Below, piece after piece: positions 1-6,000 of a DNA stretch of 8,812 nucleotides (its first letter is position 1; each line of letters begins with the position of its first letter). A program made the position numbers. The stretch lies in IMG/VR virus record IMGVR_UViG_2690316086_000015. The stretch is one strand, 5' to 3'. Origin of the DNA: a virus. Lineage: Duplodnaviria; Heunggongvirae; Uroviricota; Caudoviricetes.

Positions 1-3000
1 AGTGAAGACGTAAAGCTTCAGTGATCCAGGTCCGGTGTTTCATACGATAGTGTCCATTAAAAATGATGGACATTATTTTTGTAGAGCCGGAGGAAACAGA
101 CCAGACGGTTTAAATGAGCCGGTTACGTCTGAACGATATCCTCATCGCCTGTGTGGATGGCCTGAAAGAATTCCCGGAGGCCCGCATCCAGTTATGCATC
201 GTGCATATGGTGCGCAACAGCATGCGCTTCGTGTCATGGAAGGAATACAAAGCCGTCACTCGCGACCTGAAAGCGATTAGCCTCCCACAGAAGAGGCAGG
301 CCAGCAGGCACTGGAAGCGTTTGCTGCGACCTGGGACTGCCGCTATCCGCAGATAAGCCGGTGCTAGCTGTCAAACTGGACTAACTTGGCGACGTTTTTC
401 GCTTATCCGGCAGATATCCGCAAAGTGATCTACACAACGAACGCCATCGAGTCGCTGAACAGTGTGATCCGGCATGCCATCAGGAAACGCAAGGTGTTCC
501 CGACGGACGAGTCAGTAAAAAAAGTGGTGTGGCTGGCAATCCAGGCCGCGTCACAGAAATGGACAATGCCGTTAAGGGACTGGCGAATGGCAATGAGCCG
601 CTTTATTATCGAGTTTGGTGACCGTCTTGACGGTCACTTTTAAGAAAAGGCATTTACACAGAATCCTAAACAGGCTCACAGGCCTCTAATCATCCACATT
701 GTAAAGATCCTTTGTTGTAAGTAAGATCTGGTACCCTAATAATATCAAAAGGATTAAAATCATCACTGCATCCTTCCACGAGGCATTTCATTGCTCGTAG
801 ATCACCATATAGCTCTGAAGAGTGATGCGGACATAGCAGATTATAAACTTTACATTTCGAATCTTCTTTGCCTTGTCTACTTTCCTCAATTTTTACTTTC
901 AATGAATGCAGAAAAAAAAGATCCCTGATATAACTATCCCTATCCTCTATCGTCATTCCCGCCCTCAGCGCTCCGACAACCTCATCAGTATTTTCATTTC
1001 TCACCTCAAATACACTATTTCTCTTATCCATCAGCCCACTTACAAAAGCACTTAGCTCTTGAAAAATTTCCTCAAGCTCATTATTATTTCTGGCACATGA
1101 ATATATAGAGACCATAACATCAAGTTTATCTTGTAATTCAGGAGAAAGAAAGTGATTATGATTAAGCTCACTTACTGATTCCGGAGTCGAAGGGTTACCT
1201 CTTCCTGATACATACATCCATGAATAAAGATTTGCTGAAGAACCACTTGTTGGTAACATATCAAAACCCCCTTAACAAATAAATCCATAAATATTATTGC
1301 AACTAATATATCTGGATAAAAATATTATATCTTACTTAATACTACACTAATAAGATCCAGCTTTCCTCCGTGATAAGATTGCATGACTTGATGTTCACTC
1401 CATGAAATATCAGAAACATTATAAGATGATATATCTATTGGATTAAATTCATTTCTCATACGATCATATAAAACATTTGTTTCTGTTGTATCAACAAAAA
1501 GAATTCCTTTTTTCTCCAGTCTGTCAAACATATCGTAAATAGCCTGTTCAGCTTGTGCTGGTAATGATGGAATATCCAAAAGAGATTCCCCATTTATTTT
1601 ATTCATTCTAATACCAATAACATTTCCATTATCATTATATATTTTCTCTGCACTCCCGGAACCATAATACTGATTGAAACAACGAACTTCGCTTGTCACC
1701 TCTTCATGGCTTTGAGATATAGTAAACATCTTCAACACTTTTGTTGTATCTTCCATATCTTCATACACGACAGCATTACCACCTTTACCAATAACATTAC
1801 CTGGCACGGGTGATTTATTGTTGCTAACCCTCGGCAACTCTGACTGAGTATAATCCGCTGGAGGTAACTCCGGCTGCGCATAATCCACTGGAGGTAAATC
1901 AGGTCTGTTCGAATGAACAGAGCCTCTTTCTATAGTCGTGCTCACTGGCGATGTATTCAGCATAGCCTCAATTTTTCTGCTAATCTCTCCCTTAGGCCAT
2001 CCCAACCTGTGCAACAGATTAGTAAAACAACCACTATGACTTTCTCTTGTAACGCAAAACTTATTATCAGTGACCACAACACGATATGTTCTGTTGCCAA
2101 CCGTTACTTGCGTCCCGCTATCAGAGTGAACAGCAGCATCCCTTACAGAGGATAAAACACGATTATCAGGCGAAGTCAGGTTTCTGGTTAAAGAATTCCA
2201 TGAACATCCCAAATTTATAGAAGAGGGCGATAACATACATTTCAACCTTCAAAATAAACCTATCTAATTATTCCTAACAGACATCCCCCATACATGACAA
2301 CAAAAACCGGAGCCGGACTCCGGTTTTTGTGAAGCTATCGGGTTACTTCATTTCGCCAATATTTTCCCACTTCCCGTCAGCACGCAGGATTTGCAGCGGT
2401 CTTACTACACACTGACCCGAGGACGAAAAAAGAGTTCGGGCTGGGAAGAGACAGAAGAGTAGCAATTTCAGAAGCATTCACACCAACATTGAGCTTTTCA
2501 GCGAAAGTGGGCACGAATCATTGCTGGACAGGGTTAAAGGCACTGACTCAATCACTCTTCATACGTGGCTTGATCGATATGAAACAATCCTCAGCTAGAG
2601 GGGGAGCAAGCCGAAAACATTACTCGACTACGCCAGCAAAATCAGGGCAATTCGAAGAAAATTGCCGGACAAACCGCTCACTGACATATCAACGAAAGAG
2701 GTGGCAGCAATGCTAAACACCTACGTCGCAGAAGGTAAAGCGGTTTCCGCAAGAGTAATCAGGTCAACCCTTGTTGACGTTTTTCGAGGGGCAATAGCCG
2801 AGGGGCATGTGGCAACGAATCCAGTAACAACAACCCGTGCAGCAAAGTCAGAAGTAAGGCGCTCAAGGCTGACAGCTAATGAGTATGTCGCTATTTACCA
2901 TGCTGCTGAGCACCTCCCCATCTGGCTGAGGCTGTCAATGGATTTAGCTGTCGTTACAGGGCAGAGAGTGGGCGATTTGTGCAGAATGAAGTGGTCAGAC

Positions 3001-6000
3001 ATAAACGATGGTCATCTTCACATTGGACAGAGTAAAACAGGAGCCAAAATTGCCATTCCGCTGGCTCTAACCATTGACGCACTCGACATCTCACTGGTTG
3101 ATACACTACAGAAATGCAGGGAGGCCAGCAGCAGTGAAACAATAATCGCATCAACCTATCACGAACCACTTTCTCCAGCCACAGTATCACGGTATTTAAC
3201 AAAGGCGCGAAATGCATCCGGGATCTCGTTTGATGGAGACCCACCGACATTTCATGAACTACGTAGTCTGTCCGCGAGGCTATATCGGAACCAGATTGGC
3301 TACAAGTTTGCACAACGTCTTCTTGGACATAAATCTGATTCAATGGCGGCGCATTATAGGGACAGTCGCGGGCGGGAGTGGGACAAAAATGAAATCGGAT
3401 AATGATTTTATTTTGACCAATAATGACTTACCAGATTTAACAACTTGATATTTAATAAGATTTTGAACGAACAACTTCCATGTCAGAAGGAGGATAAAAT
3501 CACAAAAACACATTAAAAATCATTATGTTATTTATACAATTGATTAAATGATAGACTGCAAAACGCGACAAAACACTACATTTAGAGTCACAATTAATCA
3601 ATGAGTTAGATGTGATTAGTGACCTGAGACAGAGCATTAGCGCAAGGTGATTTTTTGTCCTCTTGCGCTAATTTTTTGTCATCAAACATACAGCCAATCA
3701 GAAGAGCATAAAGCTGCCAAGCATTATATGTCTTAGTTTTATGCTCATTTTCATTAAAAATATATATAATAAGACTAATATCAGTATAAAATATTTATAA
3801 CACTTAGAGTAAAAATGTAATCAGCTTATACAACCAACAATAATTAAACTATAAAAAACAATAACAGAAACATTTATAATTTATTTTAAGTGTTCAAGCG
3901 ATAAACTGGTAAATTTAACAACTTCATTTTGAGATCTAAGTCACATCAATCAAGCATTCAAACAGTTATATATTAAAGCTGTCCACATCGGATATGTGAC
4001 ACTAATAGTATCAATGGATTGATATTATTAATGGATATAAACATGTAATAAGGATTTATTATGAACATTCAACCGACCATACAATCTGGAATCACCTCAC
4101 AAAACAATCAACATCATCAAACAGAACAAATACCCCCTACACAAATACCGCAATCCGAATTACCTCTAGGATGCCAAGCTGGATTTGTTGTTAATATTCC
4201 AGATGATATACAGCAACATGCACCGGAATGCGGTGAAACAACAGCTCTACTGAGCTTGATAAAAGATAAAGGTCTGCTCTCAGGGCTAGACGAATATATA
4301 GCTCCTCACCTTGAAGAAGGATCCATAGGAAAAAAAACATTGGATATGTTTGGTTTATTCAATGTTACCCAAATGGCATTAGAGATACCTAGTTCCGTTT
4401 CAGGCATCTCTGGTAAATATGGTGTCCAGCTAAACATTGTAAAACCAGATATTCATCCTACATCAGGTAATTATTTTTTACAGATATTCCCTCTGCATGA
4501 TGAAATAGGTTTTAATTTTAAAGACCTTCCTGGCCCGTTAAAAAATGCATTAAGCAACAGTAATATATCAACCACTGCAGTGTCGACTATTGCATCGACT
4601 GGAACATCAGCCACTACTTCGACGGTAACCACCGAGCCAAAAGACCCAATACCATGGTTTGGATTAACAGCTCAAGTGGTTCGTAATCATGGTGTAGAAC
4701 TTCCTATAGTCAAAACTGAAAATGGATGGAAGCTTGTTGGAGAAACACCACTTACTCCTGATGGGCCGAAAGCAAATTACACGGAGGAGTGGGTTATCAG
4801 ACCGGGAGAAGCAGATTTTAAATATGGTGCATCTCCATTACAGGCAACTCTAGGGCTGGAGTTTGGCGCACATTTCAAGTGGGATTTAGATAACCCTAAT
4901 ACTAAATATGCCGTTCTTACCAATGCTGCCGCAAATGCGCTTGGTGCTTTAGGGGGATTTGCAGTATCCAGATTTGCTAGTACAGATCCAATGTTAAGTC
5001 CTCATATCGGTGCAATGGTTGGGCAAGCAGCAGGGCATGCCATACAGTATAATACCCCTGGATTAAAGCCAGACACTATTTTATGGTGGGCTGGTGCGAC
5101 ACTGGGGGCTGCCGATTTAAACAAGGCCGAGTTTGAAGTAGCTAGATTCACTGACTATCCTCGTATATGGTGGCACGCAAGAGAAGGAGCTATTTTCCCC
5201 AATAAAGCAGATATTGAACATGCCACAGGTGCTGATATACGCGCAATGGAAGAAGGTATCCCTGTTGGACAGCGGCATCCAAATCCAGAGGATGTGGTAA
5301 TCGATATCGAAAGCAATGGCTTACCACATCATAATCCATCAAATCATGTTGATATCTTTGATATAATCCAAGAAACAAGAGTCTAAGCTTTAACTTGTTT
5401 ATTTTAAAATAATAGCTGAAATGGATGGCAGCTATTATTAATAAGGATTAATATATTTTTTCTAAAATACCCCACAAAATAAACACATCATAAAAATTCT
5501 AAATACACACACCTAATCTCAAAAAAACAAACTTACTATTTGACTTGGATTATGTTTTTAATCCAATATTTTCCGACAACATCTCCACAGAAAAATGCAT
5601 TTACATAAAGACGCCTTCAAGTCATCTGAAACCTGCCAACCACAGACACCTTCTTATATTCTGGATGTCTGCGGCGTTTTTTTTACAAATTACTGACAGC
5701 CAATACTCTCTCAGAGAAAAATATTTTAACTATCTTTTATAATGAAGTTTCCCTTGATAGGATCATAAACACATTTATCAGGACTTATAATCATTGATGC
5801 CGTTATTGGTTCTCGGGTCAGTGGATGATATGAGCCTTCACTAGCTAAACGAGAAAATGCATCAAAATCAAATAAGCAGCATACTGCCGAACTATCTGAA
5901 TTTTTGACAAACACTCCTTCTTCGGGTCTCTCTAGTGTAATTGGACACTGAATAGACTCTGGCGGGCACTGGAAATTTCCTGAACTAACAGGAAACTTAC

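Follow-up and report, generated by a model that had tools for sequence, protein, structure and literature searches.

A decapitated lambda-family integrase beside an apparently complete attP, a probable phage fossil in the effector locus of an Escherichia coli ompW prophage

How does a fragment of a phage integrase gene come to lie between genes for type III secretion effectors, joined abruptly to a repeat, and is it still of any use there? The question is raised by a stretch of 8,812 nucleotides from a virus of the Caudoviricetes (IMG/VR record IMGVR_UViG_2690316086_000015), referred to below as the window, in which a preliminary description made from the sequence alone had noticed a damaged relative of the lambda int gene. 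We consider it likely that window 2414-3684 is the non-functional fossil of an int-attP-sib module from a temperate phage of the lambda/HK022 family, and that an illegitimate crossover joined this module to the 3' end of a tail-fibre gene of a second lambdoid phage.

The relic itself is a pseudogene of an HK022/lambda-family integrase. It occupies 2414-3402 on the plus strand, corresponds to codons 28-356 and the stop codon, and is 85-87% identical at the nucleotide level to intact int genes of the HK022 type. A megablast comparison with such genes from complete E. coli genomes and phages places the start of the similarity at G2414, and nucleotide and protein alignments agree on GAC (2414-2416, D28) as the first homologous codon, codons 1-27 being absent. 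The abrupt onset noticed in the preliminary description is thus confirmed, and so are the two further lesions that it had reported. In an alignment with the int gene of HK022, two intact prophage int genes and lambda int, 1 bp is deleted between 2475 and 2476, which corresponds to the third base of codon 48 (GAAGC-ATT in the window against GAAGCTAT in three intact relatives), and an amber codon, TAG at 2596-2598, replaces the GAG (Glu89) of the HK022-type genes. The arm-binding domain (residues 1 to ~63) is incomplete and has no start codon, as a tail-fibre fragment on the opposite strand takes the place of codons 1-27, and the frame of the core-binding domain is interrupted by the TAG at codon 89. 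The decapitation and the two additional inactivating lesions together preclude a full-length integrase, as had been concluded before.

What remains open, again in agreement with the earlier observation, is a frame of 246 amino acids (2662-3402, plus strand) that covers part of the core-binding domain and the catalytic domain. It matches residues 111-355 of lambda Int from end to end (E = 1e-113; lambda Int structures 1P7D and 1Z1G) and keeps all six catalytic residues (R212, K235, H308, R311, H333 and Y342). The TTG at 2662 encodes an internal Leu and is only a candidate start. As a gene the relic is an ordinary element: it is already annotated as a pseudogene in RefSeq in hundreds of genomes, where the label given by the Prokaryotic Genome Annotation Pipeline (PGAP) reads 'frameshifted; internal stop; incomplete; missing N-terminus'. 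Two other ways to account for its state were rejected. The lesions are no sequencing artefact, since the same ones are found in independent complete genomes, and the upstream sequence does not encode a divergent but intact N-terminal domain, since it is the end of a tail-fibre gene on the other strand together with its terminator.

The sequence in front of the relic had been taken for the leader of an effector cassette, which turned out to be incorrect. In fact, it is one copy (copy A; 2271-2414, minus strand) of a direct repeat and consists of the last 24 codons of a gene annotated as 'phage tail fiber C-terminal domain' followed by an intergenic terminator. The coding part (2343-2414, minus strand, 72 nt), annotated as a tail-fibre pseudogene fragment, encodes QCVVRPLQILRADGKWENIGEMK and a stop, and the terminator is a strong hairpin at ~2301-2330 (-21.5 kcal/mol, z = -5.2 on folding). 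The other copy (copy B; 6342-6504, minus strand) comprises the 3' end and terminator of the resident tail-fibre C-terminal gene, to which PGAP has attached the note 'frameshifted; internal stop'. The 8-mer ACACACTG is found at 2407-2414, inside copy A, and at 6497-6504, where in copy B 20 nt, GGATTTGCCCCTATATTTCC (6477-6496), separate it from '...cttact'; these 20 nt are not in copy A. The preliminary description was therefore right in placing acacactg at both sites and behind a 20-bp insertion in copy B, but the repeat ends at 2414 and not at 2406.

Which of the two copies represents the original state is clear from other genomes. Thousands of other tail-fibre copies in complete genomes match window 2271-2414 gaplessly, so copy A is the normal sequence and copy B the one with an insertion, which shifts the reading frame of the resident gene; the phage copies of the tail-fibre 3' end are likewise ~20 nt shorter than copy B. 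The insertion GGATTTGCCCCTATATTTCC itself occurs once in the window and once in the corresponding locus of the O103 strain ML775, and is missing from the phage copies and from two aligned intact genes (strains OkiPb01687 and FDAARGOS_946). Intact tail-fibre genes end in ...KKQIQCVVRPLQILRADGTWENIGGMK and a stop, with cagtgtgt(g/a)gtaagacc contiguous, and acacactg continues the tail-fibre C-terminal gene (...KKQIQCVVRPLQILRADG.WENIG.MK, followed by the stop). Because the intact genes read through it uninterrupted, the 8-mer stems from the tail-fibre parent alone.

This bears directly on the mechanism of joining that had been proposed, in which acacactg was present in both partners and mediated the union of leader and int as an 8-bp microhomology. 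The model draws on the exact repetition of the 8-mer and on the non-homologous character of the join, which is real. It requires, however, that the int parent read ...ACACACTGACCC at codons 25-29. That parent reads ...TGCTACAGG followed by GACCC at the crossover, and only G2414 is common to both parents; the 8-mer, being contiguous with the tail-fibre gene in intact copies, belongs to one of them only. Moreover, the 20 nt upstream of the junction have a similarity score that 60% of position pairs drawn at random from the two genes also reach. We find it scarcely credible that the microhomology guided the event. A patchy homeology at the junction, suggested by a MAFFT alignment (TTACT.C.ACA..G), was rejected as well on account of its chance-level score. 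The junction (2414-2415) joins the tail-fibre 3' fragment on the minus strand to int codon 28 on the plus strand with an overlap of 1 nt, G2414, and is the product of an essentially blunt illegitimate recombination. The more general part of the earlier proposal, that a decapitated lambda-family int had been joined illegitimately to the sequence preceding the effector cassette, is supported by the junction alignments.

The origin of the integrase fragment can be read from what lies behind its stop codon. On either side of the core, the interval 3403-3684 shows homology to the attP regions of HK022 and lambda, which extends over the regions of the arm-type sites and the sib/tI hairpin. More specifically, the P' arm (3403-3474, plus strand) aligns with the 'int 4' arm-site region of lambda and with the P' arm of HK022, the common core is formed by the 11 bp CTTCCATGTCA (3475-3485), and the P arm (3486-3624, plus strand) has putative arm-type sites that align to P2 (agagtcacaat, ~3583-3593, plus strand) and P1 (attagtgacctg, ~3614-3625, plus strand) of lambda and HK022. 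The sib/tI hairpin (3625-3684, plus strand), which serves in processing and termination of the int transcript, is nearly identical to those of lambda and HK022; the match overlaps the features 'attP site' and 'sib transcription processing site' of HK022 record X51962, and the inverted repeat in the window folds at -29.6 kcal/mol (z = -6.3). A consensus scan for promoters and terminators over 2200-4100 returned nothing above shuffle expectation and missed both of the strong hairpins, which were folded separately afterwards.

The limits of the core were provided by prophages at the yfaS/DUF1175 (yfaT) locus of O111 strains. A prophage of O111:NM strain FWSEC0005, which has an intact int and lies beside the DUF1175 gene, has the P' side and CTTCCATGTCA in common with the window and then diverges into the chromosome. 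The O111:H8 strain 08-4347 has the order yfaS - truncated DUF1175 - CTTCCATGTCA - P arm - sib - nleA - nleG, and its homology to the window begins exactly at 3475 and ends at 5483 (92.1% over 2011 nt). The core is thus the crossover segment common to a real attL and a real attR. Since both arms are homologous to phage attP and the breakpoints of attL and attR fall at the edges of the core, the window holds P'-core-P, and 3403-3684 has every appearance of a complete, unrecombined attP. Judging from the two O111 prophages, the living relatives of the relic would integrate at yfaT and carry nleA beside attR. In the window nleA (4061-5386, plus strand) is the cargo gene that travels with the int'-attP fossil.

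The state of this att site also decides on a different history, in which a second phage integrated at an attB-like site in the effector locus and was afterwards mostly deleted, with int left behind. Effector loci of ompW prophages are documented targets of such prophage-in-prophage integration (Nakamura 2021, PMC8112680), and int does adjoin an att-like sequence. This sequence, however, has P' and P arms and sib and is an attP, not the hybrid attL that integration would leave. The 21-bp attB-in-PP_1 is not present in the window. Furthermore, the att region is contiguous in 463 records, close to the ~464 records of the relic type. Integration followed by deletion is, in our judgement, highly improbable.

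In addition, the prophage around the relic was found to have an integrase of its own. The window represents the exchangeable effector locus at the right end of a lambdoid prophage in ompW: a cluster of genes for type III secretion effectors immediately follows the tail-fibre genes at the end of the prophage. The sequence of O103 ML775 is 100% identical to window 1-7409; its PGAP annotation lists the same genes as the window and a truncated ompW further on, and ompW' beyond the window content is also found in strain E2348/69. An intact int-xis pair lies at the other end of the prophage, adjoining ompW (the attL end), and its int is 39% identical to the relic; the preliminary description had advised a check for an integrase acting in trans. 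The assumption that the relic is this prophage's own integrase could therefore not be maintained. According to that view the relic is the degraded working enzyme and its lesions have locked the prophage in place, which would agree with its being the only int-like sequence in the window and with the reported defectiveness of PPompW prophages (Nakamura 2021, PMC8112680). Considering the separate integrase and excisionase at the ompW end, and the position of the relic at the tail-fibre end beside an unrelated attP whose core matches yfaT and not ompW, it is extremely improbable.

The fossil int-attP-sib module that we favour would have come about as follows. The donor would belong to a group of phages that integrate at yfaT (DUF1175) via CTTCCATGTCA and carry nleA in the b region next to attP. 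The segment was apparently kept in the vegetative order nleA - sib - P arm - core - P' arm - int; as this is the order of the circular genome, it would not have arrived by its own site-specific integration. The other partner would be a second lambdoid phage or prophage, which integrates at ompW with its own integrase and had the arrangement tail fibre-terminator-nleH-nleF. One illegitimate crossover would then have broken int between its codons 27 and 28 and fused it to the tail-fibre C-terminal gene of this partner, 72 nt ahead of the stop codon. The product, tail fibre - nleG - nleA - attP - int' / 'tail fibre - nleH - nleF, would have two effector loci in series, which would also explain the direct repeat of the tail-fibre 3' end. 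In this hybrid one parent would have supplied the late genes and the first effector locus, and the other the second effector locus together with att and int. The int fragment would have no function, decay neutrally and hitch-hike with nleA.

Both parental arrangements are still found in present-day genomes. On the side of the donor these are the yfaT prophages of the O111 strains. For the other side the parent was repaired in silico (nleH 5' end - terminator - uninterrupted tail-fibre gene), and full-length matches to this construct, at 92-95% identity, in 251 genomes demonstrate that an undisrupted tail-fibre-terminator-nleH parent exists. A search of three copies of the locus for xis or an int 5' fragment elsewhere in it found neither.

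Several points weigh against this reconstruction. The yfaT-type int of FWSEC0005 is only ~86% identical to the relic at the nucleotide level, versus 92-94% for the P arm-nleA side, and the exact donor lineage is for that reason not pinned. The core was delimited with an attL from one O111 strain and an attR from another. Furthermore, no intact sibling above 90% identity was found in the complete E. coli genomes, the phage collection or the contigs representing one genome per species: in the first of these sets each near-identical copy listed is either truncated or labelled a pseudogene, and intact relatives that were retrieved reach ~86-87%, the phage collection yields relatives at only 85-86%, and the contigs gave a single match, a copy in Escherichia whittamii. 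Finally, a two-step route, in which a whole phage integrated illegitimately and a homologous deletion between tail regions followed, would give the same product. A single crossover, whether between two phages or between a phage and a prophage, is preferred here as the simplest history; like the order of the lesions, it is inferred.

The fossil is widely distributed. The relic is present at an identity of at least 99% in 443 complete-genome records, and the tail-fibre/int junction, at the same level, in ~420 complete E. coli genomes, which include the unrelated lineages O157:H7, O55:H7, O103, O111, O121 and enteropathogenic E. coli (EPEC) O127:H6 E2348/69. A comparison between strains had been advised from the start, and every locus that was sampled in full (O103 ML775, EPEC E2348/69 and FDAARGOS_946) has all three lesions. 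Moreover, each of the sampled loci, even the one on a plasmid, has int', attP and nleA as a set.

The relic module is 99.7-100% conserved across lineages, and one may ask whether it is still used, either as a truncated Int that modulates related integrases or as a secondary attP for phages of the yfaT type, or both. Apart from the conservation, the residual frame has 246 uninterrupted codons and all catalytic residues, an AGAGG motif can be read 7 nt upstream of an internal ATG at 2710, and the arm-type sites and the core look intact. Nevertheless, the frame has been broken independently on two occasions, in FDAARGOS_946 by an extra 14-bp duplication at 2784 and in the plasmid copy by a 10-bp insertion and a 1-bp deletion. 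No promoter-like site precedes it in the consensus scan of 2200-4100, the matches listed include no split attP, and recent horizontal spread of the whole block explains the conservation. On these sequence comparisons, continued use seems quite unlikely.

The substitution pattern points in the same direction as the fossil reading. The ratio of nonsynonymous to synonymous substitution rates (dN/dS) of the relic versus HK022-type genes is 0.14-0.19, compared to 0.09-0.10 among the intact relatives; as a signal of relaxed constraint this difference is weak because most of the divergence predates inactivation. The relic has 17 private replacements at positions that are invariant in the HK022 group and lambda, one of them E232G, three residues from the catalytic Lys. 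Extra lesions in individual copies, described below, likewise speak for neutral decay. The relic is, to all appearances, dead and drifting.

A role of the attP site alone should be considered separately. In strains that contain both, an intact Int of a yfaT-type prophage might still recognise the fossil attP in trans, and the HK022-type Int is indeed intact in FWSEC0005, the strain with a yfaT prophage that was examined. We think this very unlikely. If it were true, the attP in the ompW prophage would be a secondary attachment site for prophage-in-prophage integration, or for rearrangements between ompW and yfaT mediated by Int, and would constitute a phage-derived addition to the bacterial-type attB-in-PP sites that have already been described.

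A comparison with known systems puts the fossil in perspective. With the Int and attP-sib of HK022 and lambda it shares the catalytic hexad, an identity of 85-87% to HK022-type Int over codons 28-356 at both the nucleotide and the amino-acid level, and the layout int stop - P' arm - core - P arm - sib/tI hairpin. Unlike these, the relic lacks a start codon and the first 27 codons of the arm-binding domain and is further damaged by a frameshift and an amber codon; it lies inside the effector locus of another prophage instead of at a prophage end; and the fossil core CTTCCATGTCA differs from theirs, so that the original target site differed as well. The O111 yfaS/yfaT prophages have the identical 11-bp core, a P arm-sib-nleA segment that is collinear at 92-94%, and an HK022-type int at the attL end. 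In contrast to the joined attP and the dead int of the window, their attL and attR are split and their int is intact, and the int and P' arm sides are more divergent (~86%).

The surrounding locus, on the other hand, resembles the exchangeable effector loci of lambdoid prophages (Tobe 2006, as cited in Nakamura 2021, PMC8112680), and in particular those of PPompW: it lies downstream of the tail-fibre genes at the right end of the prophage and contains nleA, nleH, nleF, nleG and debris of insertion sequences (IS). For PPompW, Nakamura 2021 (PMC8112680) describes an effector locus with nleA, nleH, nleF, espM and nleG. That paper discusses copies of bacterial-type attB inside prophages; a fossil attP-int module is not mentioned in the passages searched. 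Like the secondary integrases of 'grounded' cryptic prophages, the relic is truncated, frameshifted, passively carried and annotated as a pseudogene. It differs from them in that, thanks to an intact attP and to parental arrangements that both survive, the recombination event can be traced to within 1 nt.

The functional importance of the relic is small, as the gene is dead and already flagged in RefSeq. Its value is mainly historical. The scar would show that nleA once resided in the b region of a yfaT-integrating, HK022-like phage, and that the nleA and nleH-nleF loci of the widespread ompW prophage of enterohaemorrhagic E. coli and EPEC were concatenated by one illegitimate crossover at the tail-fibre 3' end. 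The junction is, in addition, a convenient lineage marker for the effector block, as the join is identical in all the serotypes listed above. What the present analysis adds to the existing annotation is the position of the junction to within 1 nt, the recognition of the complete fossil attP and the identification of both parental arrangements. Within the literature covered, which is incomplete, we found no paper on the relic, the fossil attP or the affinity to yfaT, the locus tags ECs1813 and Z6023 included.

Several individual copies have a history of their own. The plasmid copy resides on pZ1323HEC0108-2 (99.6 kb, which also carries stcE), where the int'-attP-nleA block is cut at ~2765 beside an IS21 fragment, a 30-bp tandem-repeat insertion, TATAAAAACCCATAAAAACCCATAAAAACC, lies inside the fossil attP at ~3500, and a frameshifted pseudogene of the YkgJ family is annotated right after nleA. 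In the cattle strains 114 and 141 and the bovine strain OkiPb01687, a deletion of 1.67 kb (window ~802-2475) has fused the 3' part of nleF to the relic. The right endpoint of this deletion (2475/2476) is identical to the site of the 1-bp deletion, which is probably a coincidence. E2348/69 has ~12 differences from the window within 60 nt at 3493-3554, versus 3 in the whole 1-kb int relic, a cluster that points to a short patch of recombination within the P arm. The only relative found in another species, that of E. whittamii Sa2BVA5, is an N-terminally truncated HK022-type int with 89% amino-acid identity; its truncation, as far as the sequences indicate, appears to be independent.

With respect to the remainder of the window, the minus strand carries J (partial), lom, the tail-fibre N-terminal and C-terminal genes, an nleG-like gene, nleH1-2 and nleF, and the plus strand nleA and the int relic. 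Copy A of the repeat is followed by the effector cassette, of which the first gene is nleH1-2 (1325-2236, minus strand), identified from its open reading frame and from the PGAP annotation of the identical ML775 locus. A scan of the whole window against Rfam gave no family over threshold. On the left side, next to nleF, the remnant of a transposase of the IS256 family (mutator type) extends over 114-643 in at least two frames; in related genomes it is annotated as a frameshifted, truncated pseudogene. The interval 5387-5725, 3' of nleA, may hold the ykgJ/ecpE-like attB-in-PP_2 described in Nakamura 2021. Both the nleG-like DUF1076 gene (5726-6256) and the tail-fibre N-terminal gene (6948-7410) are frameshifted according to PGAP in the identical ML775 sequence. 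The ML775 locus is longer than the window by 106 nt, with the gap at window 7393-7409.

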